Positions 3,001 to 49,879 of a DNA stretch of 64,000 bases are shown one piece after another. The stretch lies in contig OZ245366.1 of NCBI GenBank assembly GCA_965226585.1, positions 1,319,423 through 1,383,422 of the forward strand, in the 5' to 3' direction. Positions within the stretch are counted from its first letter, which is position 1, and the number at the start of each line of letters is the position of its first letter. Made by a program: the position numbers and the translations under genes. The DNA is from Thermodesulfobacteriota bacterium (GTDB taxonomy: Bacteria; Desulfobacterota_D; UBA1144; Nemesobacterales; Mycalebacteriaceae). Under the pieces are notes generated by a model that was not told where the DNA came from, did not search any database, and worked only from the letters and a program-made list of their open reading frames with translations.

Positions 3001-6000
3001 GGTCGCCGTTTCCGCCCACAGCGCGTTTGCTCTCGCGCCGTTTGCCCGCACCTTCAGGTTGCGGAGTTCAATATCCGGGCTGTCTGTCCTGACAGTGTTA
3101 ACGCTGTCACCGGCAGACCATATTTCCATCGTCTCGCCTTCCGCCGCGCTGATTGAGAGCGAGCCGCCGCCGCTTTCAGACCATATTGCCGAACTGCCCG
3201 CGCCGTTTGCCCAAATCTTTGAGGAAACCCCCGTATCGTAGGAAACATCGCCGCCCGCGCTGCTTTTCAAGACAATCGTGTTGCCGTCCGCGCCTTGCGT
3301 CCAAGCCCGTTTCGCGTTGAAGTAGTTGTTGATTTCCACAGCCGCGCCCGTCTGGTGGTCAAGCGAAAACACCGTTCCCCTCAAGCCTTCTGTCGATACT
3401 TCATTCTGGTTTCTGATATTCATTCGGAATGTCCGCACGGTGTCGTCAATCATGTTTGCCGCGCCGCCGCTTGTCACCGTTGTCGCGAACACGGTCGCGT
3501 CATCCTCTCCCATGCGGAAAGATGTGTTTGTGGAATCAACAGATATCCGCGTGCCGGAACTGTCCGTTAATTTGAAAAACTCTCCCGTTGAGTTTGCCAG
3601 TATGACAGCCGAGTTGTGCAGTTGAACGCCTATGTCGCCTCTTTGCGCGTTGAGGGTGAACGCCGCGCTGTCTGCGCCGTTGACCAAAATGGTAACGCCG
3701 TTGAAGTTCGCCTGAATCTTGTTGCCGCCGCCCTTAACCTGAATTGTCTCTCCGCCGAAAGCGGTTGAGTTATCACCCTCCGTCCAAACGGTTGAGTCGT
3801 GTACATCCATAAAAGATGTGCCGCCCGCTTCGGTGATAAGGAACAACGGCGCCGAGTTTGCCCCGTTTGCCCATACTTTTGACCCTCTCACTTCTATGTC
3901 GGTTTTTCCGTATAAGTATGTGTAGCCGTTGACGGCAACTGAATTATGTCCTTCAGTCCATACATCCGAGGCGGTTACGGTTACAAGCCCGTTGCCCGTT
4001 TCACTTTCGCTGAAAGCGTTAATTGCCGCCGAATGGCTTCCGTTTGCCCAAACTTTTGATTTGTCCAGATTTACAATCGCGTGTCCTTCCCTGCCAGCAT
4101 CAATGTCCTCAACGGTTTGCACGGCTACGCCGGATGAGTTATCTCCTTCCGCCCAAATGTTCACGCGGACGGCGTTCACAATTCCATTCCCGCCTTCAAG
4201 CGCGGCAACATAGACGGCGTTGGACTCATTGCCGCCGGTTGATATGTCCATAACGCTCAAATCTACAAATGTGCGTCCTCCCGGTATTGCCGGGGTTCCG
4301 GGGTTTGTGCAGTACACTTCTCTCCCGTTCGGAAATACAACGCAGAGATATCGCCATCCGTCTATCGCCGGAACACCCCCGCCGTCTTGAATGGCAACCG
4401 AGAGTCCGGTGGAGTTGCGCCCGCTTGTCCGTATGTTTGAACTTGTGAAACTTGCATTGGCGTGTCCTCTGAATTGAGAGTGCACGATAACCGCCGTTGA
4501 ATCCGCGCCCGCTGTTGTAATGTCTGTGCCGTTTATTTCCGCAGAGGCAAGTGAGATGCCCCTTGACGCTCTTATCTCAAGCCCCGTTGAAAAGCGTTTT
4601 GCCGTCCGCACGGTTGAATCGTCAATGCCTACAAATACCACCGAGTTTGTGCCTGAACTGTTCGGTAATTTTGTGGCGTCCGCATAAATTGCCTTGGAAC
4701 TTATTTCGTTTGCCCACACATCGGAGTCTTTCACAAAGAGAGCCGCATTTCCGCCCAGATCTGCGGTTACGGTAATTGCCGTTGATATTGTGTCTTCCGT
4801 CCACACATTCGCCCCTGTCGCGTTCACTGTGGCGTTTGCCCCGCCGTATGAGGTTACGTTTATGCCGCGTGAGCGGCTTCCCCATGCGGAGATATTTGAG
4901 CCGCTGATGTTTATGGCGGCGTTTCCAAAAAATGCGTCTGCGGAAATCGCACTCGCGCCAAGTCCGCCCGCCCGTATATTCGCGCTCACCGCATTTATAA
5001 GCAGTTCCACGCCCGCCTCGTAAGACGATATCGCGGTTGACACGCTTCCGTTAGCCCACACGCTCGCCCCGTTCACATCAACCGTAATTTCAGTTGTGTC
5101 CGCCGTCCGCTTTTCCGCCTTGATTGCCGCGCCGCCGTCTCCTGAATGAATCCAAACATTCGCCCCGCCGGACACTTCCACCGTTTCCGCGACTATTGTT
5201 ACACCTCCCACTCCGTTAGCCCACACATCCGAGCCGTTGACTGTTGCCGTTGTCGCAAGCACGGTTACGCCGTTTGAGTTGTTAGTCCAAACTTTCGCCC
5301 CGCCCACAATATCCACCGTTGTTGCCACCGTGATTACCGCGCCTGTGTTGATTGCCCCTTCCGCCCAAACTTCAGAGTTGTTGATTGTCGCAGATGTCGC
5401 TTTTATGGCGTTGCTGTCTGATATGCCGTTAGTCCAAACTTTTGCCTCGTTGCTTATCATCACGGTTTCCGCCGTGATGGTTTCGCTTGTGTTGCCTTCC
5501 GTCCACACATTCGCGCCGTTGACTGTTACCGTTACCGCCCTCACCGCGTTGCTTGTGTCGCCGTTTGCCCACACATTCGCGCCGTTCCATATATTTGCGG
5601 TTGTCGCCCTGATTGCATCGCTTGTCGCGCCTTCCGTCCATATATCCGAGCCGTTTGCCGTTACCGTTTCCGCTGACACCGCGTTACTCGCGGCTCCGTT
5701 TGCCCACACTTTCAAGTCGTGAACGGTTGCCGAGCCGCCGGATAAAGAAGAAGCGTTTATGGTTGAACCGCCCGCGCCGATTGTCCAAATCTCTCCCATT
5801 CCGTCTTCAGAAACGATGGTTACAGTTTCCGAAGTTCCCGCCTCAACCGCCGCTGAGCCATCGCCGTTTGCCCAAACCTTTCCGCCGCCGCTCACATTGA
5901 CCGTTGCCGCAATTATCGTGTCGCTTGTGTTGTCTTCCGTCCAAATCTGCGCGCCGTTGACTGTTGCCGTTGCGGTGAAAATCGCGCGGGCTTGCTGTCC

Positions 6001-9125: not shown

Positions 9126-9270
9126 TAAGGGTTCCCGTATTAGGGATAATTCAACAGCAAAACTCGGCGTTGTTAGACCGGTTATGGCGCGGGATTATAC
9201 CCATACAGACTATATTGTTGGGGTTTTCTGTCAAATGGGGAGAGGGGTAGAAAAGGGGTTTTTTTCCGTC

Positions 9271-9291
9271 ATTCCGTGCTTGACACGGAAT
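9271..9291. repeat. Solitary repeat-derived hairpin (attccgtg-cttga-cacggaat) in the A–B intergenic spacer, 7 nt past the paralog B stop codon.
   Basis: A perfect 8-bp stem with a 5-nt loop, the same hairpin module found in the 113-bp array units. On the plus strand it is preceded by GGGG-T7. Confidence 0.5.
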
Positions 9292-9297
9292 CCGGTA

Positions 9298-12200
9298 TTA
9301 AAACGCTAATCCAACTCTCGCGCTAAACACCTGCGTTAGCGTATCCAGCCCCGGCGTTACTCCGCCGTCATAGTCAATCCGCACATTAAAACCCTTATAC
9401 GGCAACACAAACTCAGCCCCGGCGCCGTAATTAACCATTATCCTCTCAAGCGAACCGGTTACCTTGAACAAATCTCCGCCGCTTGTCCTCGCGCTCCACT
9501 GCGTTTCAGGGTCTGTAATGTGCGCGTCCGCTCCCAAACTCATCCAGATATTTACCGTCTCTCCCGCAGGAACATACGCCGTTACGGACGGGCTTATAAC
9601 CAAATATGTCTTCCCCGCCCCGCCAACGGTAAGGGCGGAATCTTCCAAAGCCGTCTCGCGGAAACCGTCAGCGGATACCTTTGTAACTCCCGCCTCAACT
9701 CTGGGGACAACCATAAACACACCGCCGGGAAATATCGGCATCTCCCCGCCCACAGCCGCAGACCATGTGGCTACATCCGTTTCCGCCCCGTGCTTCCCGT
9801 TATCGCCTCTTATCAGACTTTCCCCCCTTAACGCCGCAGATTCCCATGTCGCTCTGGCAAACTGCGTTCTCACATCCGTGATAATTCCGCTCCAAAACTC
9901 ACTCGCCACCGAAATACCCGCCATAAACCTCTCGCCGCCCGCGCTTGTGTCTGCTCCGGCGTCAAAGTCCGATGTCTCATATCCCGCCGCAACCGATACG
10001 ATGGATTTTCCGGCAGGCACGGTAAAACCGCCCGTGAATACGTGGGCATCTTCACTGTATTCGGAAGTGGCGGTGTGCCGCGTGAATCTGCCGTCCGCCG
10101 CCGCCCACAGACAGCCGCCCCGCAGGTCTTGCGTTTCCGTCTCATCGCCGCCGCCGTAGCAACCGCCGCGCAGTTTTTCTGAAAATGCGTTGTCCGCGTA
10201 GTAGGCGGATTGAATCATGGCGTCATAGTTTCTCAGGTAATCGTATGGACGGAGGTTGGAAAGGGTAATGAAGATGTTGCCGATTTCATCCATCCGGGCA
10301 GACGCATTCCGTTCAAGCCCATCGCTTACTATGTTGAAAATTGCCTGTCTTTCATCTTCGCTGTCCACCAGAATTTCTTCCCTGAATAACAGAAACTCTC
10401 CCGAAAGTCTCTCAGGGTTGGCAAATCTTGCGCTGAAACCTTCAATGTCCGCCTCAGCTATCTCGTCTTCAACGTTTATGAGCGATCTGCCCACCATCTC
10501 GACAGGGTCTGCGGTTATAAGAAGGAGTGAGTTTTCGCCGAAGGTTATTTTCTCCAAACCCGCAAAGCCCTCGCCTCCGATAACCATTGTGCCGTTGTTT
10601 ATGAAATAGTCATCGCCGCCGCCAAAGTTTATTGGTATCCCCGTGCCGTTTATTATGCCGTCATTTCTGAAAGTGTCTTCGCCGGTTCCCGTGTCAAAAG
10701 AGCCGGCCATTGTGATAACTCCCGTGTCTTTGTTGGTAATTCTGTCGTGGTAATCGCTCAGTTTCACATCTCCGACTATCGTTCCCGCGTTTTCCAGAAT
10801 GGAGTGGTAGTCTGCGGGGTCGTCATCCGCATTTCCGTCATCCCTTATCCGCACCGCCGCCGCGCCCGCCGCGCCGGTTATAAGACAGTTGCGTCCCGCG
10901 TCTATCACACCTGAGCACACAAGGCCGTCTTCAAAAACTTTCATAATGGTTTTGTAATATGCCGCTCTGCCGCTTCTCAAAAATACCGCCGTAGAGTTCT
11001 GTCCGTCTGCCGATACATTCGCGCCGCCGGATATGTAGAGTTCCATCTTGCCCCCGCCGGAACTCCTTGCTCTTTCCGCAAGCATTATGGCCGCGCTGTC
11101 CACTCCGGTTGCATAGACACCCGCGCCGCCTGATATGTTCGCAATGGCGTCTCTGTTATATGCGTTGATATTTATAGCCGCGCTTCTCGCGCCGTTAGAG
11201 AAAACACGCGAACCGCCGTCAACATAAACGTATGACCTCGCGCCGGCAAAACCGTCTGTTATTGCTATTGCGTTGCTGTCTGCTCCGGTTGTGTACACTT
11301 GCGACCTTCCGGACACTCTCATGTGGGAATCCCCGATTCCGAAGCCAATAAATATCGCGTTGCTTTTCGCGCCGTTTGTCCAAACTCTGGAACCGTCGTG
11401 AACCACTATGTTGGCGAATGCCTCCGTATCTACGGCTATGGCGTTGCTCATTTCGTCTGTGGTGAAAACCCTTGACGAGCCGTTGACAATCACCCGCGCG
11501 AAATCGTCAATTCCGCCGTCCGCGCTGTTTGCGTAGATTGCCGTGCTTCCCGCGCCGTTTGCCCACACACGGGAATGACTGTGGACTTCTATGTATTGAT
11601 TTCTTTCAGATGCGTTTCCGTAGATTGAGTATGCCGAGTCTCCCTCCGTCCACACTTCCGACCCGCCGGAAATGATAATGCCCGACCCCGGCGCTCTTTG
11701 AGAGTTCATGTATATCGCGCCCGTTCCCGCGCCGTTTGCCCAAACCTTTGAGCCGTTTGCAACCACCCACTCCGCTCGCGCCCCCGTCCAGCTTCCCGCG
11801 CTGTGATGCGAGTTTGACTCAGCCGCCGCTCTGCCTTCTCCAACAGACCACACATTTGAGCCGCTGATTGTAATTCCTATAAATCTGTGCGAGTTCACGA
11901 AAATCGCGCTTCCTTCCGTGCCGTTTGCCCACACATTTGAGCCGTTGGCAATCGTAAGAGTTGTGTCCTGTCTTATGGCTCCCGCGCTCTCCGCCCTTAT
12001 GGTTTTGCTGTTAATTCCTCCCGACCAGATGTTTGAACCGCTTGCGACAAAACCAATTCCTCCCTGTCCGGTTGAGTTCATCATCACCGCCGCAGAACGC
12101 GCCTGAAAAGAGAGTCTGGAATCTTCAAAGACGGTGGAGTCTCGTATTTCCACATAGATTTTGCCGGCGCCCGTTGTTTGCGCCCTGATGACGTTTGAGT

Positions 12201-13122
12201 CTCGTCCCGCGTTTTGCCCTGACCAAACCCTTGACGATTGGACCTTCACAACAACCGCGTTGGTTCCGGAGTCTGAGTTTGCGGAGGTGGCGAAGATTGC
12301 CGAACTTGCAGACTGGTTTGCCCATATCTCAGAGCCTTTGACATCAACCGCAACACTGCCGGTTCCGGGGTTGGCGGCAATCGCGCTTGAGTTAGTTCCG
12401 TCCGTCCATATTTTTGAGCCGTTTATTTCAATGTTTATATTTTCGCTGTCGCCCGCGCTGGTGATATGAACGGTGTTCAACCATCTGCTGAATACCGGCT
12501 TGCCCGCGCCCAGTTGAGAGTTGTGAATGGCAACGGATATTGGCGAGGGTGTTGCCGTTTCCACCCACAGCGCGCCCGCTCTGTTGCCGCTTGCCCGCGC
12601 TTTCAGGTTGCGGAGTTCAACATCCGGGCTGTCTGTTCTGATAGTGTTGACGCCCGGTTGAGAAGTCCATATTTCCATTGTTTCGCCATCCGCCGCGCTG
12701 ACAGAGAGCGAGCCACCGCCGCTTTCAGACCATATAGCCGAACTGCCCGCGCCGTTAGCCCATATTTTTGATGAGATTCCTGCGCGGTAGGAAACGCCGC
12801 CGCCCGCGCTTTTCAAGACAACCGTGTTGCTTTGCGCGCCGTTAGTCCAGATATCTGTGGCGTTAATGGTTAGAAGCAGGTTAGCGGTTTGATTTTCGTT
12901 GGAAGCGTTAACGGCGGTTGACTGGCTTCCGTTTGCCCACACTTTCAAGTTGGCGAGTGTGGTTGTTGCCGTTGCGTTGAATGTTGAGACGCTGTTATCC
13001 ACCGTCCACAATTCTCCGTCTTTTGAGAAAGCCGCAACATCTATTGACTGTGCGTAAGAGGGAGGCGGTGAGAAAGCAAACAGGATTCCGAGTATGGAAA
13101 GCAGGGTTAGGGTTTTACGCAT
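9298..13122 (-). CDS. Autotransporter-like outer-membrane protein, paralog B, 1274 aa.
   Basis: Signal peptide MRKTLTLLSILGILFAFSPPPSYAQ. The passenger carries VWANG/VWTNG/VWSGQ repeats. A conserved linker (RGGCYGGGDETETQDLRGGCLWAAADGRFTRHT) precedes a C-terminal β-barrel ending ...TQVFSARVGLAF. Confidence 0.85.
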   Translation of the reverse strand: MRKTLTLLSILGILFAFSPPPSYAQSIDVAAFSKDGELWTVDNSVSTFNATATTTLANLKVWANGSQSTAVNASNENQTANLLLTINATDIWTNGAQSNTVVLKSAGGGVSYRAGISSKIWANGAGSSAIWSESGGGSLSVSAADGETMEIWTSQPGVNTIRTDSPDVELRNLKARASGNRAGALWVETATPSPISVAIHNSQLGAGKPVFSRWLNTVHITSAGDSENINIEINGSKIWTDGTNSSAIAANPGTGSVAVDVKGSEIWANQSASSAIFATSANSDSGTNAVVVKVQSSRVWSGQNAGRDSNVIRAQTTGAGKIYVEIRDSTVFEDSRLSFQARSAAVMMNSTGQGGIGFVASGSNIWSGGINSKTIRAESAGAIRQDTTLTIANGSNVWANGTEGSAIFVNSHRFIGITISGSNVWSVGEGRAAAESNSHHSAGSWTGARAEWVVANGSKVWANGAGTGAIYMNSQRAPGSGIIISGGSEVWTEGDSAYSIYGNASERNQYIEVHSHSRVWANGAGSTAIYANSADGGIDDFARVIVNGSSRVFTTDEMSNAIAVDTEAFANIVVHDGSRVWTNGAKSNAIFIGFGIGDSHMRVSGRSQVYTTGADSNAIAITDGFAGARSYVYVDGGSRVFSNGARSAAININAYNRDAIANISGGAGVYATGVDSAAIMLAERARSSGGGKMELYISGGANVSADGQNSTAVFLRSGRAAYYKTIMKVFEDGLVCSGVIDAGRNCLITGAAGAAAVRIRDDGNADDDPADYHSILENAGTIVGDVKLSDYHDRITNKDTGVITMAGSFDTGTGEDTFRNDGIINGTGIPINFGGGDDYFINNGTMVIGGEGFAGLEKITFGENSLLLITADPVEMVGRSLINVEDEIAEADIEGFSARFANPERLSGEFLLFREEILVDSEDERQAIFNIVSDGLERNASARMDEIGNIFITLSNLRPYDYLRNYDAMIQSAYYADNAFSEKLRGGCYGGGDETETQDLRGGCLWAAADGRFTRHTATSEYSEDAHVFTGGFTVPAGKSIVSVAAGYETSDFDAGADTSAGGERFMAGISVASEFWSGIITDVRTQFARATWESAALRGESLIRGDNGKHGAETDVATWSAAVGGEMPIFPGGVFMVVPRVEAGVTKVSADGFRETALEDSALTVGGAGKTYLVISPSVTAYVPAGETVNIWMSLGADAHITDPETQWSARTSGGDLFKVTGSLERIMVNYGAGAEFVLPYKGFNVRIDYDGGVTPGLDTLTQVFSARVGLAF

Positions 13123-13226: not shown

Positions 13227-13870
13227 ATGCCTTCCCCGTCATTCCGTTGCCTTTCCCGTCATTCCTGCGAAAGCAGGAATCCAGTATTGGTTAACCAGTT
13301 GAATACTGGATTCCGTGTCAAGCACGGAATGACGGGATGGGGAAAAACACGGAATGACACACTTTCCCGTCATTCCTGCGGAAGCAGGAATCCAGTATTG
13401 ATTAACCAGTTGAATACTGGATTCCGTGTCAAGCACGGAATGACGGGATGGGGAAAAAAGCACGGAATGACACACTTTCCCGTCATTCCTGCGGAAGCAG
13501 GAATCCAGTATTGGTTAACCAGTTGAATACTGGATTCCGTGTCAAGCACGGAATGACGGGATGGGGAAAAAAGCACGGAATGACACACTTTCCCGTCATT
13601 CCTGCGGAAGCAGGAATCCAGTATTGGTTAACCAGTTGAATACTGGATTCCGTGTCAGGCACGGAATGACGGGAAGGGGAAAAAGCGCGGAATGACACAC
13701 TTTCCCGTCATTCCTGCGAAAGCAGGAATCCAGTATTGGTTAACCAGTTGAATACTGGATTCCGTGTCAGGCACGGAATGACGGAAAGGGGAAAAGGCAC
13801 GGAATGACGGGAGTGTAGAAGCGTCATTCCGTTGCCTCCTCCGTCATTCCTGCGAAAGCAGGAATCCAGT
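13227..13870. repeat. Tandem array 1 of the ~113-bp palindromic repeat, ~5.5 units, NIME-like.
   Basis: The motif cacggaatgacacactttcccgtcattcctgc recurs at 13348, 13461 and 13574 (period 113). Each unit carries three nested hairpins: ATTCCTGCGGAAGCAGGAAT, ccagtatt-ggttaacc-agttgaatactgg and attccgtg-tcaag-cacggaat. There are no unique spacers. Confidence 0.9.
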
Positions 13871-13883
13871 ATTATTTAACCCG

Positions 13884-14174
13884 ATGGACAAAAATCCCGC
13901 AGTCTACATAATGGCGAGCAAGCGAAACGGAACACTTTACACAGGTGTAACCAGCAACCTGCCCGCCCGCGCTTGGGAGCATAAGAACAGCGCGACAGAA
14001 GGTTTTACAGACAAATACAGTGTCCACCTGCTTGTGTACTTTGAAGTGCACGAGGATATGAATTCAGCAATTGAACGCGAGAAGCAGATAAAGCAATGGA
14101 AACGCCAATGGAAATTGGAACTTATAGAGAAAGACAACCCTGAATGGAAAGATTTGTATGAGGATATTGTTTGA
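13884..14174 (+). CDS. GIY-YIG nuclease superfamily protein, 96 aa, of the UPF0213/YhbQ-like small stand-alone GIY-YIG type.
   Basis: The N-terminus reads AVYIMASKRNGTLYTGVTSNLPARAWEHK..., matching the GIY-(10-11)-YTG...R...EH pattern of the GIY-YIG catalytic domain. It is the only plus-strand gene in the island. It is inserted in the loop of a repeat-unit palindrome. Confidence 0.75.
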   Translation: MDKNPAVYIMASKRNGTLYTGVTSNLPARAWEHKNSATEGFTDKYSVHLLVYFEVHEDMNSAIEREKQIKQWKRQWKLELIEKDNPEWKDLYEDIV

Positions 14175-14920
14175 GTAGGGGTTTCGCCAGTTGAATACTG
14201 GATTCCGTGTCAGGCACGGAATGACGGGAAGGGGAAAAGGCACGGAATGACACACTTTCCCGTCATTCCTGCGGAAGCAGGAATCCAGTATTGGTTAACC
14301 AGTTGAATACTGGATTCCGTGTCAGGCACGGAATGACGGGATGGGGAAAAAGGCACGGAATGACGGGAGTGGAGAAGCGTCATTCCGTTGCCTCCTCCGT
14401 CATTCCTGCGGAAGCAGGAATCCAGTATTGGTTAGCCAGCTGAATACTGGATTCCGTGTCAGGCACGGAATGACGGGAAGGGGAAAAGGCACGGAATGAC
14501 ACTCTTTCCCGTCATTCCTGCGGAAGCAGGAATCCAGTATTAGTTAGCCAGTTGAATACTGGATTCCGTGTCAGGCACGGAATGACGGGAAGGGGAAGAA
14601 GGCACGGAATGACACTCTTTCCCGTCATTCCTGCGAAAGCAGGAATCCAGTATTAGTTAACCAGTTGAATACTGGATTCCGTGTCAGGCACGGAATGACG
14701 GGAAGGAGAAAAGGCACGGAATGACACACTTCCCCGTCATTCCTGCGGAAGCAGGAATCCAGTATTGGTTAGCCAGTTGAATACTGGATTCCGTGTCAGG
14801 CACGGAATGACGGAAAGGGGAAAAAGGCACGGAATGACGGAAAAAAAACAATCAACGGAATGACGGAATGGTGGAAAGCACGGAATGACGGGAAGGGGAA
14901 AAGGCACGGAATTACAGGTC
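14175..14920. repeat. Tandem array 2 of the ~113-bp palindromic repeat, ~6 units plus a degenerate A-rich tail.
   Basis: ccag(t/c)tgaatactgg recurs at ~14190, 14302, 14440, 14551, 14662 and 14774. The array sits directly downstream of the paralog C stop codon. Confidence 0.9.
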
Positions 14921-17900
14921 TTAAAACCTGTAATTAACTCCGCCTCTGAACTGTTGCACAAAAGTATCAACCGAAGAACTAACCCCGCCGCCATATTCAA
15001 CACTCACATTAAACTTCTCATAAGGGCTGTATTCAAAACCCGCCCCGTAGGTGAACATCACCCTGTCCATTGTGCCGTCAACGGGAACATTATCCCTCTC
15101 AAGCCTTCCTTCAATCTCAGATTCAGGGTTAAGCACTTGTATATCCGCCCCTGTTCTTATCCACATATTTATTGTCTCATTGAGAGGACTCCGCGCCTCT
15201 ATTGACGGACTCACGTACACAAGCAACTCGCTTATCTCATCTACCCCAAAGGCATCCATCGCCGCATCCGCCGCACCTGTTCCTGTTGTAAGCGAAGTCT
15301 CATTAAACTTATCCGCCGTTATTTGAGATGCTCCAACCGCCACACGGGGGAAGAAAGCGAACTCTCCCATTAAGAACGGTCTTGCCGCGCCTATCTCGCC
15401 GCCGAATACCGTTGCGTCCACATCCGCCGAGTAACTGTTACCCGCCGTTCTGGTCGCTTCCCAACTCGTTGACCCGTAACGCAGGTTGCCGTCAAGCACA
15501 AACTCATCAACCAACGCCTCGGCAAATATACCGCCCATGAACCTTGTTGCATCTCCGCTTGCTTTGCCCAGTCCTCTCGTGTCCGCCGCAGTCTCTGTTT
15601 CTGAACTCGCGTCTATGTCCGATATCTCATATCCGCCCGCGATAGAAACAAGCACTCCGCTAAATGGCGCGGAAAAACCGCCGGTGAAGGAATAAACATC
15701 CTCGTCATATTGTATCGCCGATGTGTGCCTTGTGTATCTTCCGCCCGATGTTGCCCATACGCATCCGCCAGTCCAAAACTCTCCTTCTATCTCATCACTC
15801 GCCGCTCCGCTGATTCCGCATCCTCTTGCCAACTTGTCAGCAAAGTTTCTGTCTGAACGGTAGGCGGACTGTATCAATGCGTCATATACATCCAAACTTG
15901 TGTCTTTGTGCGATGTTGCTCTTAAAAACAGGTTGCCGTTTTCGTCTGTCTCAACAGTTATTCTTTCGCCGATTTCCGCGCTCAGGCGGTCTGCAACTTC
16001 CTGCCTTTCTTCGCCTTCCGGCAGGGCTTCCGCTTCAAAAATTGTGTATTCCGTTACATGCGCGCCGGGAACTTCAACTTCAACATTGAAACCCTCAACA
16101 TCTTCGGCGGTTATCGTCCCCTCAAGGTCTATCAGCGGGTCGCCCGCAACGCTTTCAGGGTCTGCCGTGATAACAAGGGTTGAGTTTGCGCCGAAAGATA
16201 TCTTCTCAAGCCCGTTAATCGTTTCCCCGCCACTTATTACCAAAGTTCCGTTGACTGTCAGAGTGTCTCCATCGCTATCTCCAAAGTTCAGAGAACCGCC
16301 GCCCGATTTCTCCGGCTCCGTTTCCACAAACTCAGCGGTTCCCGCAGAACCGAGACGGAAACGCCCGTCTCCGCCGGATGATGCGGAACGCCTGCTGCTG
16401 GTGGTAATATTCGTGCCTTCATACGTTCCGCCTGCGGCTATGGTAACACTTGCGCCGCCCACAACAGCAGATGTGTCTATGTCGCCATACACCTTGCCGG
16501 TGGCGTTAATCGTAACTATTCTGTTATCGTAACCAAGGGTTCCTGACCACCCCTTCGCGCCCGCAGACATTTTTATCGCCTTGCCGCCCGTTACGTTCAC
16601 GGTTCCGTCCACCCAAACAAAAGCCCCGCCGTTTGCCGTGCTCGCGGAAATCCCGATTCCCGAAGTCGCACCCGCCGCCCCTTTCGCGTACACCGCCGAA
16701 CCTTCATCAATAATTACATTTGCATATCCGGTATCAGCCCTCGCTATTATCGCCTTCCCGCCGGTTCCGCTCGCGTTCACAAGCGTTCTGCCTCCTAATC
16801 TTACTGTCGCCTCTATGTCATGCACACTTACGGCAGATGCCCCTGTTTGGGGGTTCGTCCTCGGCGCGCCGGTTGTTGTGGCGTTCAGCCCTTCAGCCTG
16901 TCCGCCCGGGAGGCTGATAACATGTGTAACATCCGAACTTGACGAATGATAAGAGTTGACAGTCGCGTCCGCCCCGGCCGATTCTGCCACGGCATACTTG
17001 CTTTGGGTTCCGTTTGCGTAACGCACTGCGGGAGTTCCTCCGCTTGGTGTGCGGAAAATAATATCCACCCGGGCATTTGCGCTGCTTGAGGATGCGTGGG
17101 CGGCGGTACTGCGGTTGTCGCCGTTCACGAATAAAATGCCGCTCGTCTCAATACTTGCGTTTCCGCCTGCGCTAGCCCGTATCGCCGTGCTTCCAATGCC
17201 CTCCGTATAGACAGCCGTGCTGTGACTTGCCTGTCTGATTAAAACATTTCCCGACCCGCTCACTCCGTACAGGGCGTGGCTTTGCTTCTGCACCGCCCAC
17301 ACTTTTGCCTGTCCTGAAACGGTAATGGCAACATCTCCGCTTCCGCTTGATACGCCACTAAACGCGGATGACCTGTCAGGGATGACTGACAGCCGAGAAT
17401 CTCCGCTCATTGAAAAAGATATATCTCCGTTTCTCGTCTCCGCGACAATTGCGTCTGCAAGGAAATGACCGCGCATAGCTACCTGAGAGGTGCCGCCAAG
17501 CGCAATATTTATGTCTCCGTCCGCGCTGTTCGCGTGTATGGCTCTGGCGGCGGTTCCGTATTGCGGGAATCCGGCTATCACCTGCGCGCCGCCCTGCAAA
17601 CTGACGGTTGTGGAGCCGTTGCGGGTTTGCAGTCTGACGGTATTGGTATTCGACTGCCCTGAGGAAACATACGCCGAATCCGGATTCTCTAACGGCGCGT
17701 CTGCCGCCGCCGCCGCGCCGTTGACATAAAGCCCTATGGCACCGTCCACCGATGTCGCTTTTATGGTGTCGCCACTCCCGCCGGTAACGACTCGCGACTT
17801 GTCGGAAATGATTATTTTTGTTTCTCCGTTACCCACTTGCGACACGACACCGCTTCCTACCGCCTCTATACGGGAATCGCCAACCAGAGTAATTTCCGTT

Positions 17901-20900
17901 CTTTCTGTTGAGCCGCTTGCGTCAACACTCAGCACGGAGGCTCCGCTTGTTTCTGTGGCGATGCTGGAGTTTGCAAGATAGACCCTAACTCCAAGTTCAG
18001 TTCCCTGTGTTCCCGCTACGTATGAAGAGCTTACGTGAACCGCGCTTCCCGCTCCGGCGACCGCCGTCAGCGGAGAATTGACTATATCAAGCGTTGCCGT
18101 GCCTTTGTCAGCCCGAACCTGCGCGGCGCGTCCGCCGGCGGATTTAATAGTTGAGCTGTTGACGATGACATGCACGCCTCCAACCACTCTTGTTCCCACA
18201 GCCGAAATTCCGCTTGACCCCGCAACCGCCATGACGGTTGAATCATTCACCGCCAAAACTACCGCCGGCAAGTCCGCTGTTCCGCCGGGGCCCGCTCCGG
18301 CGTCAACGGCGTCAACGGCATTTGCTCCCGCGCCGTTTAACGCGATAAACGAGTCGATTACATTCACTGCTCCAACAATTCCTCCAACCGCCGGGTTGCC
18401 CGCGTGCGCCGACCATACCTTGGACCCGCTTATGTGCACAGTCGCCCCTTTGACGGCTGTGCCCGTGCCTGATGTGCCCGTTGCCCAAACCTCCGAGCCG
18501 TTAGTTATGCTCACGCCGCCAGCCGTGGTGATGCCTTCTCTTACCGCCCACACCTTTGAGCCGTTAACGGTTACATCTCCGCCGGTCTGGATTTTGATGG
18601 CATTGCCGGCCGCGCCGTTTGCGCCAACTACCGCGCCGTTGACCACATTCACCGCGCTACCCGTTTGAATCGTGATTGACTCGGCGCCTTCGCTCCAAAC
18701 GCTGACGCCGTTTAAGTCAAAACCCTCACTGAAAGAAGTGATGACAAAGGTTCCCGCGCCGTTAGACCAAACTTTTGAGCCGTCTGTTATGGTCAGCGAT
18801 GTCCTTCCCGTTTCGGGAATTACAGGGTTCACGGGGCTGTCTCCCGTTGACCACACATTTGAGCCGCTTATGCTGATGTCTGCTCCTGTTATCGCGCTTT
18901 TTGCCGCTCCATGCGTCCAAACGTTTGACCCGTTAAACACTTTCACCGTTCCGGTTGCCACAATTCCGCCGCCGCCGGTCGCGCTGTTTGCCCCCGCAGT
19001 CGCGCCGCTCAGAAGTACGTCTTGCGCCGTAATCGCGTTGCTGTCCGCTCCTTCAGCCCACACAGACGCGCCGTTGAGTGTTACGGTTCCGGTTGCGGTT
19101 GTGGCAAGGGCGTCTGTTGTCGCGCCGTTAGCCCACAGCTTTATGCCGTGAATTGTTACTTCCGTTGTTATTCCCGCAGTTGAAGCACTGTCTGCCGTTG
19201 TCCAAACTTCTCCCGCTCCGTCTCTTGATTCAATGGTGAGCGTTCCCGAAGTCGCATTAATCGCAGAACTGCTCGCGCCTTCCGCCCAAACCTTTGAGCC
19301 GCCGTAAATTTCGAATAATGAGGCAACCACAACCGCGTTGCTGTTATCGCCTTCCGTCCAAATTTGCGAACCGCTTCTGATTGTCGCGTTTTCGGTTACG
19401 GCAAGGGCGTTTGTTGTCGCGCCGTTTGCCCACACTTTTGCTTGCCGAATAAATGCTCTGTCCGCCCTCAGGGTTAAAGCCCCATCACCGGTTGTCCAAA
19501 TCTCTCCCGTTCCGGCAATGGCAAGCCCTCCGCCGCTTCCCGCGGAAACCGCCCGACTTCCCGCGCCGTTTGCCCAGACCTTGCCGCCGGCGGTAATTAT
19601 TAGTGAGTTGGCGATAATCGTGTTGGCGTTATTGCCTTCCGTCCAAACTTCCGAGGAGTACACTCTCGCGGAATCCGAAACTACCGCATCAGACCTGAAG
19701 CCGCCCGTCCACACCTTGACGCTGTTCTGAATGCCCACAGTTGTTGCCTTTATCGCGTTACTGATTGGGCCGTTTGCCCACACATTCGCGCCGTTCCAAA
19801 TATTGACGGTTGGCGCAAGGATGGTGTTGGATTGGCCGCCTATTGTCCACACATTCGCGCCAATGACTGTTACGGGTGCTGATGTTGCCTTAACTGCGTT
19901 GCTTCTCGAGCCGTTTGCCCACACATTTGCGCCGTTCCAAATATTGACAAGTGCCGCAACGATAGTTTCGGAACCTTGGCCGCCTATTGTCCACACATTC
20001 GCGCCATTGACTGTTACGACAGCTCCCGCCGTAACCGCCTGACTTCTCGAGCCGTTTGCCCAAACTTTCAGGTCATTGATGACCGCCGTTCTTACCGCTT
20101 TCACTGCTACAGTCGAGGATCCTTTAACCCATATCTCTCCCGTTCCGTCTTCAGATTCTATGGTAACCGAGTCCGAACTTCCCGAAACAACGGCGATTCC
20201 GCTGGATGAGCTTGCCCAAACCTTTCCACCGCTTGAAACATTCACCGTGTCCGAGACTATCGTGTTGGAGTTAAAGCGGTTTCCCGTCCAAACTTCCGAG
20301 TTATCGACCAGCACGGCTGTAGCCAAAATCGCGTCGCTTCTGGCTCCGTCACTCCAAACCTTCGCGCCGTTCCAAAGGCTCACAGTTTTTGCCTGTATCG
20401 TACCGGCGTCTGATTTGTTAGACCATATTTGCGCCGATGAGACCTTTAAGGCGTCCGTTGATATGACTGCCAGTTTGCCGTCGCTCGTCCATATATCAAG
20501 TTCTGATATTAGCGCGCCGTCCGGTGTGGCGCTGATAATGTTGACGGCGTAACTGTTAAAGCTGAGTGAGTAGATTTCGCCCGCTGAGGCGTTGCCGGAG
20601 ATGGTAACGCTTCCGCTGTTGGTTTGAACCGCCAGAGCCGCCCCCCCGCCTGCGGAGTATCTTTCCAGCGCGATTTTTGAATTGTTGCCCACCCAAACGG
20701 TGGTGGATGTGTTCACGCCTTTGAATTCAACGGTATTCACGCCATTGCCGCCTGACACGCTAATGTCGCCTGAGGTAACAAGCATATTGTCTGTTATTAC
20801 CGCGGCTATATTTCCCCGTTCTATATTTACGCTAATCACCGTGCTTTCGTCTGAGTTTATAACGTCCGGTTCTCCGTCTCTTGAGCGGATATCCAAATCA

Positions 20901-21334
20901 AGGTTTGTAATGGTACTGGTGTTTGTAATGATACCGGTGTTTGTGTTTGGGTCTCTTACGTAGGTAATTGGGTCTCTTGCGTAGGTAATGTTGAAATTAA
21001 TTCCGTCTCCTCCGATTAGCGGAACGGGTTTTGTGCCTTCAATGATGAAGGGGCGGATAGTCTTTGTGGTGGATGAAATAACCCCGCGTGTGCGACTTTT
21101 AAATATGACTTTTACAGGGGTAGTCACCTCCGGAGACGTGAAGGTTGTCGTTGAGGAATCTGTCGCGGGAAAAATTGTGGAAATTATCACCACGGAAGGA
21201 TCGTTCGTGGTTACGTAACTTGTGTTGGAATAAAATGTATTGGAATAAGATACTGTCTGGGAATAAGATACGCCCGGCACGATGAGGGTGCATAAAAGAG
21301 CAAAAAGAACGAGTGCGAACGAGCGTTTACGCAT
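14921..21334 (-). CDS. Giant autotransporter-like surface protein, paralog C, 2137 aa.
   Basis: Signal peptide MRKRSFALVLFALLCTLIVPGVSYSQ. The passenger carries KVWANG/NVWTIG repeats. The C-terminal β-domain ends ...FRGGVNYRF. The 3'-most ~1.25 kb is nearly identical to the 3' end of D. It starts 26 bp after the D stop, so D–C look like an operon. Confidence 0.85.
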   Translation of the reverse strand: MRKRSFALVLFALLCTLIVPGVSYSQTVSYSNTFYSNTSYVTTNDPSVVIISTIFPATDSSTTTFTSPEVTTPVKVIFKSRTRGVISSTTKTIRPFIIEGTKPVPLIGGDGINFNITYARDPITYVRDPNTNTGIITNTSTITNLDLDIRSRDGEPDVINSDESTVISVNIERGNIAAVITDNMLVTSGDISVSGGNGVNTVEFKGVNTSTTVWVGNNSKIALERYSAGGGAALAVQTNSGSVTISGNASAGEIYSLSFNSYAVNIISATPDGALISELDIWTSDGKLAVISTDALKVSSAQIWSNKSDAGTIQAKTVSLWNGAKVWSDGARSDAILATAVLVDNSEVWTGNRFNSNTIVSDTVNVSSGGKVWASSSSGIAVVSGSSDSVTIESEDGTGEIWVKGSSTVAVKAVRTAVINDLKVWANGSRSQAVTAGAVVTVNGANVWTIGGQGSETIVAALVNIWNGANVWANGSRSNAVKATSAPVTVIGANVWTIGGQSNTILAPTVNIWNGANVWANGPISNAIKATTVGIQNSVKVWTGGFRSDAVVSDSARVYSSEVWTEGNNANTIIANSLIITAGGKVWANGAGSRAVSAGSGGGLAIAGTGEIWTTGDGALTLRADRAFIRQAKVWANGATTNALAVTENATIRSGSQIWTEGDNSNAVVVASLFEIYGGSKVWAEGASSSAINATSGTLTIESRDGAGEVWTTADSASTAGITTEVTIHGIKLWANGATTDALATTATGTVTLNGASVWAEGADSNAITAQDVLLSGATAGANSATGGGGIVATGTVKVFNGSNVWTHGAAKSAITGADISISGSNVWSTGDSPVNPVIPETGRTSLTITDGSKVWSNGAGTFVITSFSEGFDLNGVSVWSEGAESITIQTGSAVNVVNGAVVGANGAAGNAIKIQTGGDVTVNGSKVWAVREGITTAGGVSITNGSEVWATGTSGTGTAVKGATVHISGSKVWSAHAGNPAVGGIVGAVNVIDSFIALNGAGANAVDAVDAGAGPGGTADLPAVVLAVNDSTVMAVAGSSGISAVGTRVVGGVHVIVNSSTIKSAGGRAAQVRADKGTATLDIVNSPLTAVAGAGSAVHVSSSYVAGTQGTELGVRVYLANSSIATETSGASVLSVDASGSTERTEITLVGDSRIEAVGSGVVSQVGNGETKIIISDKSRVVTGGSGDTIKATSVDGAIGLYVNGAAAAADAPLENPDSAYVSSGQSNTNTVRLQTRNGSTTVSLQGGAQVIAGFPQYGTAARAIHANSADGDINIALGGTSQVAMRGHFLADAIVAETRNGDISFSMSGDSRLSVIPDRSSAFSGVSSGSGDVAITVSGQAKVWAVQKQSHALYGVSGSGNVLIRQASHSTAVYTEGIGSTAIRASAGGNASIETSGILFVNGDNRSTAAHASSSSANARVDIIFRTPSGGTPAVRYANGTQSKYAVAESAGADATVNSYHSSSSDVTHVISLPGGQAEGLNATTTGAPRTNPQTGASAVSVHDIEATVRLGGRTLVNASGTGGKAIIARADTGYANVIIDEGSAVYAKGAAGATSGIGISASTANGGAFVWVDGTVNVTGGKAIKMSAGAKGWSGTLGYDNRIVTINATGKVYGDIDTSAVVGGASVTIAAGGTYEGTNITTSSRRSASSGGDGRFRLGSAGTAEFVETEPEKSGGGSLNFGDSDGDTLTVNGTLVISGGETINGLEKISFGANSTLVITADPESVAGDPLIDLEGTITAEDVEGFNVEVEVPGAHVTEYTIFEAEALPEGEERQEVADRLSAEIGERITVETDENGNLFLRATSHKDTSLDVYDALIQSAYRSDRNFADKLARGCGISGAASDEIEGEFWTGGCVWATSGGRYTRHTSAIQYDEDVYSFTGGFSAPFSGVLVSIAGGYEISDIDASSETETAADTRGLGKASGDATRFMGGIFAEALVDEFVLDGNLRYGSTSWEATRTAGNSYSADVDATVFGGEIGAARPFLMGEFAFFPRVAVGASQITADKFNETSLTTGTGAADAAMDAFGVDEISELLVYVSPSIEARSPLNETINMWIRTGADIQVLNPESEIEGRLERDNVPVDGTMDRVMFTYGAGFEYSPYEKFNVSVEYGGGVSSSVDTFVQQFRGGVNYRF

Positions 21335-21360: not shown

Positions 21361-24300
21361 TTAGAACCTGTAATTAACTCCGCCCCTGAACTGTTGAATA
21401 AAAGTATCCACCGAAGAACTAAACCCGCCGCCATACTCAACACTCACATTAAACTTCTCGTAAGGGCTGTATTCTAAACCCGCCCCGTAGGTGAACATCA
21501 CCCTGTCCATTGTGCCGTCCACGGGAACATTATCCCTCTCAAGCCTTCCCTCAATCTCCGACTCAGGGTTAAGCACCTGTATATCCGCCCCTGTTTTTAT
21601 CCACATGTTTATCGTCTCATTGAGAGGAGTCCGCGCCTCTATTGACGGACTCACATACACAAGAAACTCACTTATCTCATCTACCCCAAAAGCGTCCATC
21701 GCCGCGTCTGCGTCCAAAGTGTTGTCTGCGTTTCTCGCAAGCGAAGTCTCATTAAACTTATCCGCCGTTATTTGCGATGCTCCAACCGCCACACGGGGGA
21801 AGAGAGCAAACTCTCCCATTAAAAACGGCCTTGACGCGCCTATCTCACCGCCAAATACCGTTGCGTCCACATCCGCCCGGTAACTGTTGCCCGCCGTTCT
21901 TGTCGCTTCCCAACTCGTTGACCCGTAACGCAGGTTGCCGTCAAGAACAAACTCATCAACCAACGCCTCGGCAAATATGCCGCCCATGAACCTTGTTGCG
22001 TCTCCGCTTGCTTTGCCCAGTCCTCTTGTGTCCGCCGCAGTCTCTGTTTCCGAACTCGCGTCTATGTTTGATACCTCATATCCGCCCGCGATGGAAACAA
22101 GCACTCCGCTGAACGGGGCTGATACTCCGCCGGTGAAGGAATAAACATCCTCGTCATACTCTATCGCCGATGTGTGCCTTGTGTATCTTCCGCCCGATGT
22201 TGCCCATACACATCCGCCAGTCCAAAACTCTCCGGAAATCTCATCACTCGCCGCTCCGCTGATTCCGCATCCTCGCGCCAACTTGTCGGCAAAGTTTCTG
22301 TCTGAACGATAGGCGGACTGTATCAGCGCGTCATATACATCCAAACTTGTGTCTTTGTGCGATGTTGCTCTTAAAAGCAGGTTGCCGTTTTCGTCTGTCT
22401 CAACACTTACCCTTTCGCCGGTTTCCGCGCTCAGGCGGTCTGCAAACTCTTGCATTTCCTCGCCTTCGGGCAGGTCATCCGCTTCAAAAATTGTGTACTC
22501 CGTTACATGCGCGCCGGGAACTTCAACTTCAACATTGAAACCCTCAACATCAGAGGCGGTTATCGTCCCCTCAAGGTTTATCAGCGGGTCGCCCGCCACG
22601 CTTTCAGGGTCTGCCGTGATAACAAGAGTCGCGCCTTCGCCGAACTTTATACTCTCAAGCCCGGTAAATCCGTCCGCGCCCTCAATCACTGTTGTGCCGT
22701 TGCTTATGAAGCGGTCATTACCGCCTTCGCCAAAGTCTATGCTCGCTTGAGTGTCCGCAGGAGCGGGGTCTATTGCAGAAAGACTGAAACGCGCCCCGCC
22801 GCCTGATGCCGGTGAAGATTGCGCCCCGGATGAAAGACGGAAACGTCCGGTTCCGCCGGCAGACGGAGTGGTTTCCGCATTCTCTAACATGAAAGAACCC
22901 ACAGTAAGCGTTGAACCCGTTTCAGTCGTAACGGTGTCTCCATCGCCCGCGCCGAGGTCAAGATTGCCCGTAAGCGTAAATGTGGAACCGCTCTTAATGG
23001 TAATCTCGTCATCACCGCCTCCGGTGTCTCCCGAACCCGTGAAATCTCCCTCGTTGTCGAAGGTATCCGCGCCATCGGCAAGTTCTATTCTGCCGGTTAT
23101 GTTGCCGTCTGCGTGGGTTGTTATAGTTATCCCCGCAGTGCTTTCGGAATCAATTGAAAAGTGAACCGCGTTCACAGCCGCCGTCTCCGTGCAGGCTGTG
23201 CCTGAAAGCACACCGCCGCAAACTATCGCGCCATTTCCAACTTGAAGTTGCTGACCAAGCGTTGCCGCGACTATCTTTACCGTGTTTCCGCCCGAACTGT
23301 TTGACCACACTCTCGCGTCTTCAAGGTTAATACCCGAAAGCCATGTGTAGATGGCTGAAGATGAAAGCCCCTCAGCCCATACTTCCGCCTTTACTCCAGC
23401 CGGTGCGGAGAGCTCAACTGTCGTTGGGGTGCCCAGATCTTCCGGCGGGAATGTAATACGCTGTCCCCTGTCGGAAGAGTTATGGGAAGAGCGAGGGACA
23501 GAGGAAGAGGAAGCTGCGGCAACCCTTCTTATGCTTATGGTGGCGGTGTCTGCGCCGTTTGACCATATCTGCGCTCCGGTTTCAAGCGAAACCAGTCCGC
23601 TTACCGTCTCTATCCTGACAGCGCCGGACTCAGTCCCTTCAGACCAAACCTGTTTCGGGTCAAAGTAAGTGCCCACTGCCGCCGGGTTGGTTGAAGAATG
23701 CGTGAAGTCAAAGGCAACCGCGTTGTCTCCGGTTGTCCAAACCTTGTTTATCTCTGTTATCCCTATGTTGGATTTGCCTGAAATCGTAAAGTCTCTAATT
23801 TTTACTGTCGCGCTTGATGTTTCAACACTTGCTGAGAACAGAGGTCCGGTTACGGAATCTCCCGACCTGAACGATGAGTTGGTTGATGTAACGGTTATGT
23901 CGTCATCTGAACCTGCTATTTTGAGTATCTCGCCGTCTTGAGAGTTGATGCCGACCACCGAGTTGTGAACCGTAAGTCCCACGGCGGAGCCCGCGCTCGC
24001 CGTCAAATCAAACACCACAGAGTTTTCGCCCTCCACCCAAACTTCCGCTCCGTCGTCTATGTTGATGGCAATGGGACCCCCTGCCGAGTCTGCTTCAAAC
24101 ACAGTGGAATTGGCTCCGTTTGTCCATGCCTGTGATGCGTTAAACCACGTAACGGTTGACACTTTTACCGCCGAAGAGTTGATTCCGGTTGTCCAAACCT
24201 GTCCGCCGCCGGAAGCATTCAAAATTGCTGAAACTATCGCGTTGCTTGACGCTCCGCCGCTCCACACTTTCGCGCCATTGACTGTTACGGCGGTTGTTGC

Positions 24301-29643: not shown

Positions 29644-29689
29644 GAGTTGAAAAGGGAGACAGGAAAAAAATTTTTCATTCCTGCGGAGG

Positions 29690-34600: not shown

Positions 34601-34662
34601 TCCAATACTGGATTCCTGCTTCCGCAGGAATGACGGGAAAAGGCAATGGAATGACAGGGCAC

Positions 34663-49836: not shown

Positions 49837-49879
49837 GAATTAAAAGGGGGGGGCAGGAAAAAATTTTCACTCCTGCGGA

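Follow-up and report, generated by a model that had tools for sequence, protein, structure and literature searches.

A putative ssn nuclease gene between convergent hairpin repeats in a tandem array of a Dadabacteria-like genome

Introduction

The Ssn family of nucleases specific for single-stranded DNA (ssDNA) was described in 2025 (Chenal et al., Nat Commun, PMC11893778). Here we analyse a small GIY-YIG nuclease gene that splits one unit of a tandem hairpin-repeat array in a 64-kb stretch of contig OZ245366.1 from a Dadabacteria-like bacterium (the window, meaning the whole 64,000 nucleotides analysed). The founding enzyme of the family, SsnA from Neisseria meningitidis, is a 94-aa single-domain GIY-YIG protein (CDD cd10448) that binds the repeat NTS (CGTCATTCCCGCGMAVGCGGGAATCYRG) solely as ssDNA, and that strand only, and cleaves about 3 nt 5′ of this repeat. 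The GIY-YIG tyrosines and the metal-binding acidic residue of SsnA were mutated in that study, and the characterised Ssn enzymes did not cut double-stranded DNA (dsDNA) or RNA. Hairpin repeats of this type, called SRMs, lie near the gene in 71% of Ssn homologues and on both sides of it in 42%. NTS clusters adjoin membrane and host-interaction genes, and repeat-rich genomes are enriched in symbionts. The authors likened the NTS-ssnA-NTS arrangement to an insertion sequence, drew a parallel with RAYT transposases and their REP and BIME repeats, raised a domestication hypothesis and proposed the family as an ssDNA-cutting toolbox (PMC11893778). Apart from that paper, a literature search on COG2827/YhbQ/UPF0213, or on GIY-YIG proteins together with palindromic repeats, returned nothing relevant.

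The second system close to the present locus is the NIME array of Neisseria, in which dRS3 inverted repeats (ATTCCC-N8-GGGAAT) separate diverse RS elements of 50–150 bp. These arrays were proposed to promote or modulate recombination and were stated in 2007 not to have been seen outside Neisseria (PMC1797815). A preliminary description of the window had taken the GIY-YIG gene for a hairpin-recognising, RAYT-like nuclease tied to its repeat family. This intuition was essentially correct, but the system had already been published in 2025.

Results

The nuclease gene lies between two convergent hairpins

The open reading frame (ORF) is intact, with an ATG at 13884 and a TGA stop codon at 14172–14174 as read from the sequence. 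It is the only GIY-YIG gene within the window, it lies on the strand opposite to the giant minus-strand ORFs found there, and its GC content is 44.7%, against 53.5% for the window. The gene and its immediate flanks are made up as follows.

13842–13869, plus strand: upstream hairpin SRM-A in sense orientation, CGTCATTCCTGCGAAAGCAGGAATCCAG, with an 8-bp stem and a 4-nt loop (NTS match 26/28)
13870–13883, plus strand: leader from SRM-A to the ATG, TATTATTTAACCCG; together with G13869 it is the left copy of an imperfect direct repeat (13869–13883)
13884–14174, plus strand: very probable ssn gene, a 96-aa single-domain GIY-YIG ORF (ORF listing, Pfam, homologue alignments, AlphaFold model)
14175–14197, plus strand: trailer from the stop codon to SRM-B, GTAGGGGTTTCGCCAGTTGAATA; 14175–14190 forms the right-hand copy of that direct repeat
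14198–14226, minus strand: downstream hairpin SRM-B in antisense orientation, reading CGTCATTCCGTGCCTGACACGGAATCCAG on the minus strand (structural scan; exact 28-mer in more than 120 metagenome contigs)

The end of SRM-A is thus 14 nt from the ATG, and the stop codon is 23 nt from the start of SRM-B. The left arm and loop of the unit's central palindrome, ccagtattatttaaccc, occupy 13866–13882 and are separated from the ATG by a single base (g at 13883), and the stop codon is followed by gtaggggtttcg and then by the right arm ccagttgaatactgg. The coordinates given earlier were right throughout except for the right arm, which begins at 14187 and not at 14189 (cc had been counted twice). The trailer end and the first SRM-B bases (CTGG, 14198–14201) together spell TGAATACTGG, as they do in the homologous locus L177. 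The preliminary observation that the gene splits a repeat unit was confirmed, since the spacer holding the ORF is 336 nt long, against 29–31 nt in the 24 other doublets. Alignment of the filled unit with a neighbouring empty unit showed that the flanks are at least 95% alike, right up to the ORF on both sides.

The encoded protein very probably belongs to the Ssn family

A Pfam scan of the 96-aa protein gave PF01541 (GIY-YIG) alone (E = 7.8e-16, 58.6 bits, residues 6–78), and no NCBIfam model matched it. The sole homologue from N. gonorrhoeae, a 94-aa ORF among NTS repeats on a chromosome filed among plasmid records, is 57% identical to it without gaps (E = 5e-41). The length of this homologue is that reported for SsnA of N. 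meningitidis, a close relative of N. gonorrhoeae, and it is probably the orthologue of SsnA. In alignments of 41 and of 50 homologues, the window protein keeps all family-invariant residues, with Y8, Y19, R29, H33 and E66, invariant or nearly so in both alignments, and the C-terminal K-W-R-WK...N-P-W-DL motif present.

The AlphaFold (AF2) model showed one compact GIY-YIG domain (pLDDT 92.6), and neither Pfam nor the model revealed a separate DNA-binding domain. The fold search returned GIY-YIG proteins only, the nearest solved structures being the UPF0213 protein 1zg2, Slx1 and the UvrC N-domain. A sequence search of the PDB gave a weak match to 1zg2 (E = 0.26), and sequence and fold searches found no Ssn structure in the PDB. 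Exact-protein look-ups for the window protein, for P0001 and for P0121 (a second gene call on the same contig, see below) returned no record.

The hairpin beside the gene is likewise close to the Neisseria repeat, as SRM-A agrees with the 28-nt NTS consensus at 26 of 28 positions and the two mismatches (C10T and G19A) compensate each other within a single stem pair. We consider it highly likely that the ORF is an ssn gene of the Ssn family, standing in the canonical repeat-ssn-repeat module.

Oriented hairpins stand beside homologues from many phyla

The family is very large; the homologue search scored more than 8000 proteins, the best 120 of which were 67–80% identical to the window protein and included named examples from Phycisphaerae, Gammaproteobacteria and Nitrospira. 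Gene surroundings were compared in 49 loci, two of them additional to 47 from species-representative genomes across many phyla; the best match in the scan of species-representative genomes was 73% identical at the amino acid level. By strict criteria, 18 of the 49 loci had an SRM in sense orientation no more than 60 nt upstream and 15 had one in antisense orientation no more than 60 nt downstream; 11 loci had both. Hairpins in the wrong orientation were found by the same criteria in two and three loci, respectively. Several further loci carried visibly imperfect versions of the hairpins. These results demonstrate that the architecture is conserved across phyla.

The distance from stem end to gene was typically 8–22 nt upstream (up to 46) and 0–11 nt downstream (up to 50); by the same measure it is 18 and 27 nt in the window. 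The stems vary by locus yet stay complementary (CCCGCG, CCTGCG, CCGTG, ACCGGCG, TCTGAAC, TCTCAGC and others), and the TGC/GCA stem variant of the window recurs in L021 and L040. In L134 the exact SRM-B serves as the upstream SRM of an ssn homologue. The closest homologue among the matches listed, L177 (80% amino acid identity), has similar spacing and a 25-nt trailer that reads TGAATACTGG when its end is joined to the first bases of the downstream hairpin, and CCAGTAT(T) follows the upstream hairpin also in L012, L023 and L030. Because the arms of the central palindrome recur beside ssn in unrelated genomes (L012, L023, L177), the insertion in a hairpin loop that had been noted earlier describes the normal layout of the family; and because the arms travel with ssn, there is no need to see a separate target in them.

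Several observations weigh against this assignment. The published degenerate motif, HGTCWYN(0-2)YYVSBRHN(0-5)WNVSBRGN(0-2)RNCYNB, has no match in the window on either strand, because both stems use disallowed letters at paired stem positions. This motif is a search heuristic and not a definition; it misses both hairpins, and a census based on it would therefore miss the source genome. Judged by their sequences, the window hairpins are taken to be new SRM variants. A promoter scan found neither a Shine-Dalgarno sequence nor a convincing sigma-70 promoter upstream of the ORF. The count of covarying stems is partly circular, because the hairpins had been chosen for perfect stems. Finally, in the N. 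gonorrhoeae locus (L173) the nearest NTS copies are in antisense orientation upstream (1360–1390) and in sense orientation downstream (1780–1810), the opposite of the window and most loci, and the layout is therefore not universal.

The repeat unit is a convergent SRM doublet

A structural scan for SRMs, sought as perfect stems of 6 bp or more after a GTCWY anchor, gave 59 matches in the window, compared to a mean of 3.8 in dinucleotide shuffles. Fifty-five of the 59 are of two sequence types, A (CGTCATTCCTGCGRAAGCAGGAATCCAG), nearly always on the plus strand, and B (CGTCATTCCGTGCYTGACACGGAATCCAG), nearly always on the minus strand, which alternate strictly as convergent pairs. A census by regular expression of complete A(+)/B(−) pairs across the window found 25 doublets, 24 of them with a spacer of 29–31 nt (CCAGTATTGGTTARCCAGYTGAATACTGG and close variants). 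The central 29-mer was matched 19 times at no more than three mismatches, and never in shuffles. The preliminary count of 25 tandem units thus holds for the window, but the units are split over three arrays and two lone doublets.

13228–14912: array holding ssn, 11 doublets with a period of about 113 bp, intergenic (TRF, doublet census, SRM scan)
29680–30700: second array of the same unit of about 113 bp, 8 complete doublets, upstream of giant ORF 21361–29568
32125–32283 (about 32120–32295): lone doublet (32151–32226) with SRM half-sites, in frame in giant ORF 30701–34600
49867–50445: third array of the same unit of about 113 bp, 4 complete doublets, upstream of giant ORF 40420–49764
51872–52028 (about 51865–52035): lone doublet (51898–51973) with SRM half-sites, in frame in giant ORF 50451–55868

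The ssn gene stands in the sixth of the 11 doublets of its array. Within the arrays the units are 93–97% identical, and the linkers between doublets contain a partial SRM-B half-site. The central palindrome runs from the end of A (CCAG) through TATT, an 8–10-nt core and AATA to the end of B (CTGG); on sequence grounds its arms, CCAGTATT and AATACTGG, are best read as mirrored 3′ extensions of the two convergent SRMs and not as an independent target. The 5′ tails of the two SRMs pair with each other to give the long outer stem, CCCGTCATTCC/GGAATGACGGG.

The SRM repeats fold no better on one strand than on the other, whether as DNA or as RNA, and an Rfam scan of the whole window at gathering thresholds gave no match, so the repeats correspond to no known RNA family. 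A reading of the unit as a tRNA-like cloverleaf or other structured RNA was dropped, because two convergent SRMs account for the outer stem and the three inner hairpins.

Some further features of the repeats were recorded. Once per unit, the linker SRM-B half base-pairs with the beginning of the following SRM-A (GGAATGAC-N10-GTCATTCC), and a T-rich run comes after it on the minus strand. Seven such terminator-like sites lie at 13351–14743, in the array 3′ of giant ORF 14921–21334 and 5′ of ORF 9298–13122; overall there are eight, compared to a mean of 2.5 in shuffles. Solo SRM hairpins occur at 9267–9295 (plus strand, immediately 3′ of ORF 9298–13122), at 34608–34635 (minus strand, in the 62-nt gap between ORFs 30701–34600 and 34663–40407) and at 36065–36093 (minus strand, within ORF 34663–40407). 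Runs of duplicated SRM 5′ half-sites (e.g. GCGTCATTCCGTTGCCTCCTCCGTCATTCC) precede some doublets (13800–13842, 14350–14398), and runs of the same kind lie beside the ssn gene of an unrelated contig (L176, 1120–1160 and 1540–1590). Nicking and repair at the predicted cleavage site could have left these runs as scars.

The arrays lie among giant secreted-protein paralogues

Seven giant minus-strand ORFs of 1274–3114 aa are present in the window. All are paralogues with an N-terminus resembling a signal peptide and a C-terminus that ends in Phe, and none had a Pfam match. The arrays of about 113-bp period fill three intergenic gaps between them. The in-frame doublets in ORFs 30701–34600 and 50451–55868 (both minus strand) encode ...PSRHSVPDTESSIQLANQYWIPASAGMTGEAGMTGEGS... 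and mark the exact border between a variable N-terminal part and a conserved C-terminal part of about 470 aa; the paralogue 14921–21334 (63% identity) aligns only from the residue after the in-frame repeat. The in-frame doublets bring to mind the palindromic elements found within ORFs of Rickettsia, or else a recombination junction.

The aspartyl-tRNA synthetase encoded in the window shares 76% identity with its counterpart in Candidatus Mycalebacterium zealandia, and other Dadabacteria come next. Ca. Mycalebacterium is a sponge symbiont of the Dadabacteria. The source genome is probably also sponge-associated. A sponge-symbiont relative agrees with the enrichment of symbionts among repeat-rich genomes (PMC11893778). 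The syntenic hisIE-aspS-fmt neighbourhood of two relatives contains neither the giant genes nor any SRM, and the giant-gene and array block is therefore lineage-specific. Ca. Mycalebacterium zealandia and an allied genome carry a Y1_Tnp gene (IS200/RAYT type, 279 aa) about 9 kb from aspS (L178/L179, 75–914; L180, 39–878), with no SRMs in that 22-kb region.

A model for the locus

We propose that the locus is a module made of a sense SRM hairpin, a short leader, ssn, a short trailer and an antisense SRM hairpin. The 113-bp unit would be the gene-less form of this module, a REPIN-like convergent SRM doublet that has been amplified into NIME-like intergenic arrays between giant secreted-protein paralogues. 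By analogy with Neisseria, each SRM would fold into its hairpin when the arrays become single-stranded during replication, transformation, conjugation or repair. From homology to N. meningitidis SsnA, Ssn would bind the hairpin together with the conserved 5′ CGTCA tail and nick the same strand a few nucleotides 5′ of it; the predicted cuts fall on the plus strand before each SRM-A and on the minus strand before each SRM-B. Around the surface-protein genes flanked by the arrays, such nicks would modulate recombination or DNA uptake, and they may also underlie the spread of doublets. That the protein cleaves at all, with this specificity, and has a role in the source organism is likewise an expectation by analogy with the characterised family members.

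Part of what was first supposed agrees with this model. The gene was held not to be incidental to the repeat, which is borne out by the oriented hairpins around its homologues and by the published hairpin-recognising family. The supposed hairpin-targeting activity has a counterpart in the biochemistry of the family, whose members recognise hairpin repeats in ssDNA, and the RAYT/REP analogy had already been drawn by the discoverers of Ssn (PMC11893778). By analogy with the NTS and NIME arrays of Neisseria, the nuclease might plausibly drive recombination among the surface-protein paralogues. Two suppositions gave way. The likelier recognition elements are the flanking SRM hairpins (GTCATTCC...GGAATCCAG), with the central palindrome arms as their 3′ extensions, and the apparently precise insertion in a loop is better read as the canonical repeat-gene-repeat module of the family (L012, L023, L177).

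The module is discrete and may be mobile

Two loci of one Paceibacterota metagenome-assembled genome, L023 and L030, are highly similar, with long runs of identical alignment columns, over an interval that opens with the first base of the left SRM and closes with the final base of the right one. Homology is limited by the T before the left GTCATT and the A after the right AATGAC, and the sequences outside are unrelated, demonstrating that the module is a discrete unit. Gene-less convergent doublets were found in L023, where the spacer keeps leader-like and trailer-like ends, and in L008, and L026 has short gene-less arrays of two different SRM types around ssn. The exact 28-nt SRM-B is present in more than 120 metagenome contigs; in at least 67 of 120 it is part of a convergent doublet, its partner being a different SRM 8–15 nt away, and ssn lay within the fetched DNA in only three of 120. 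The ssn genes have a GC content of 40–46% regardless of that of the surrounding locus (44% to 59%). The boundaries, doublets, GC content and varied contexts fit a horizontally spreading module with non-autonomous derivatives.

Many of the metagenomic SRM doublets (L055, L062, L068, L071, L086, L094 and others) are nested in longer inverted repeats, e.g. CCTCGTAAAAAGTC ... GACTTTTTACGAGG, or adjoin another GC-rich hairpin, CCCCGCCGCTTGCGGCGGG, which suggests composite repeat elements built around SRM doublets. Close ssn homologues were also found repeatedly inside defence loci (L004/L005, 2336–3291; L176, 767–3003; L174, a Planktothrix plasmid, 1–4264), namely behind a short hsdS, with RhuM/Bro-N adjoining, in type I restriction-modification operons, beside a ThsB-TIR gene, and between MmeI and the DISARM gene drmA.

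An extension of the model would make SRM-ssn-SRM an active autonomous ssDNA transposable element, with the doublets as REPIN- or MITE-like derivatives and the arrays as products of transposition, an idea raised by Chenal et al. (PMC11893778). The sharp boundaries at the outer SRM ends in two copies of one genome (L023/L030) speak for it, as do the leader and trailer pieces kept in doublet spacers (window, L023), the amino acid identity of 70–80% and uniform GC content across distant phyla among the matches listed, the identical SRM-B in more than 120 unrelated contigs, and the unrelated gene contexts, often type I restriction-modification or defence loci. However, the nuclease stands alone, without strand-transfer or ligation activity and with no conserved partner gene adjoining it, and the rigid 113-bp period including the linker, in arrays that flank paralogues, is better explained by slippage, unequal crossing-over and segmental duplication. 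Nor did plasmid records covering the ssn genes of Rhizobium and Planktothrix yield a filled/empty allele pair; every close relative there is filled, hence this comparison is uninformative. The filled/empty junction pattern GCAGGAATCCAGTATTNNTTARCC had no match in the metagenome scan, and on this evidence the GCAGGAATCCAGTATTNNTTARCC spacer appears specific to the source lineage. We regard active transposition of this kind as possible but doubtful. The same tentative standing is given to the fuller version, in which the modules are a still-active mobile class moved via hairpin nicking by a bare GIY-YIG enzyme, the doublets are non-autonomous, the array with its direct repeat around the ORF records a gain or loss event, and the in-frame doublets show that the element reshuffles the giant genes.

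The filled unit does not require insertion of the ORF alone

Two copies of the spacer core, forming an imperfect direct repeat of 15/16 nt, stand on either side of exactly the segment from ATG to TGA, with the left copy at 13869–13883 (GTATTATTTAACCCG) and the right copy at 14175–14190 (GTAGGGGTTTCGCCAG). The copies match the empty spacer at 11/15 (left) and 12/15 (right) positions and each other at about 9/15, and the right copy is identical at 10 of 11 positions to the GGTTTAGCCAG spacer variant of the second array. The direct repeat could be a target-site duplication, or the substrate of a slipped deletion that created the empty progenitor, and fits both equally. Since its copies are far more diverged from each other than the arms are from their neighbours (at least 95% alike), the insertion or deletion event lies further back in time, unless conversion has homogenised the arms. 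The second gene call on the 1.48-Mb contig, P0121 (116 aa), has an N-terminal extension that is a read-through of SRM-A and the same leader, with an upstream linker slightly different from that of the window, and from its sequence probably represents a second filled doublet.

These features bear on a rival explanation, that homing or transposition brought a mobile nuclease gene, consisting of the ORF only, to one specific site, the loop of a central palindrome that already existed and is the target of the enzyme. The direct repeat around the exact ORF resembles a target-site duplication, 24 empty sites stand beside one filled site, the ORF differs in GC content from the window while ssn keeps to 40–46% in any host, and P0121 shares the leader on the same contig. 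Against this, the palindrome arms are SRM 3′ extensions found beside ssn in other genomes too, the trailers of other loci are just 0–11 nt long and show no such duplication, and the unit duplicated in L023/L030 takes in both SRMs and not the ORF alone. The divergence between the direct-repeat copies speaks against a recent insertion, and deletion of a gene between short direct repeats gives an identical pattern. In addition, the characterised Ssn enzymes leave dsDNA uncut (PMC11893778), and GIY-YIG homing makes no duplications. Insertion of the ORF alone is thus improbable.

That an ordinary small host gene lies in the array by chance, as its single copy in the window and the lack of mobility genes nearby might suggest, can be practically dismissed given the oriented hairpin flanks of homologues in many phyla, the colinearity to the base of filled and empty units, the published association of ssn with SRMs (71% with at least one nearby, 42% with both sides; PMC11893778) and the module limits in L023/L030.

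Discussion

The module of the window, read as a repeat-ssn-repeat unit, resembles the Ssn/NTS system of N. meningitidis in its single-domain GIY-YIG protein of about 95 aa, the hairpin frame CGTCATTCC...GGAATCCAG, the repeat-gene-repeat layout, the dense repeat clusters next to genes for surface or secreted proteins and a host that is apparently an animal symbiont. It differs in that its stems (TGC/GCA and GTG/CAC) fall outside the published degenerate motif, in its two alternating SRM types, strict convergent doublets and regular 113-bp tandem array, and in its Dadabacteria-like host lineage.

A single-copy nuclease gene between inverted hairpin repeats, a repeat scattered both as inverted doublets (REPINs) and as clustered arrays (BIMEs), and hairpin recognition in ssDNA, on the side of the window by homology, are shared with the RAYT/REP system. 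RAYTs, however, are HUH/Y1 transposases (Y1_Tnp, PF01797) that form covalent intermediates and can rejoin DNA, whereas the window protein is a GIY-YIG enzyme of unrelated fold and chemistry (Pfam and the fold search give GIY-YIG only) with no known joining activity. The window system works like RAYT/REP, as far as homology allows, yet is not a member of it. With the IS200/IS605 elements (TnpA, peel and paste) it would share subterminal hairpins recognised in ssDNA and cleavage a short distance away; those elements rely on a Y1 HUH transposase and on two hairpins that act on one and the same strand, whereas the hairpins of the window lie on opposite strands and the enzyme is GIY-YIG.

The arrays, in turn, recall the NIME arrays in their palindromes of ATTCC-N-GGAAT type, their spacing of about 50–150 bp and their position beside variable surface-protein genes (PMC1797815). 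NIMEs are a mosaic of many RS families, whereas the window has a single unit amplified at 93–97% identity, and dRS3 is replaced by ATTCCT...AGGAAT and ATTCCG...CGGAAT (palindromes ATTCCTGCGRAAGCAGGAAT and ATTCCGTGYCWRGCACGGAAT). The window arrays are therefore analogous to NIMEs, not members. GIY-YIG homing endonucleases of the I-TevI type have the catalytic core in common with the window protein, and their genes are small and often horizontally spread. They possess a separate DNA-binding domain, cut dsDNA and reside in introns, inteins or phage intergenic sites, in contrast to the bare catalytic domain with a short conserved C-terminal helix region seen here, encoded in a chromosomal intergenic array with housekeeping genes nearby.

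The present analysis places Ssn nucleases and their hairpin repeats, characterised only in 2025, in a Dadabacteria-like genome. It indicates that the published SRM motif misses real variants, since both window hairpins escape it and one of them is just a compensated pair away from the NTS consensus. What it adds to the published system are these SRM variants, the strict A/B doublets in regular arrays, the discrete limits of the module and the in-frame doublets in giant genes. The exact boundaries of a two-copy module, the widespread gene-less doublets and the filled unit beside 24 empty ones bear on the question of mobility. Neisseria-like arrays flank, and repeats twice lie inside, giant secreted-protein paralogues of an unrelated phylum, which supports a general link between SRM-type repeats and surface-gene variation; module mobility and a role in paralogue recombination are put forward as hypotheses. 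The two hairpin variants and the window enzyme would offer a new specificity for the proposed ssDNA-cutting toolbox, and the module, if active, would be the GIY-YIG counterpart of RAYT/REPIN.

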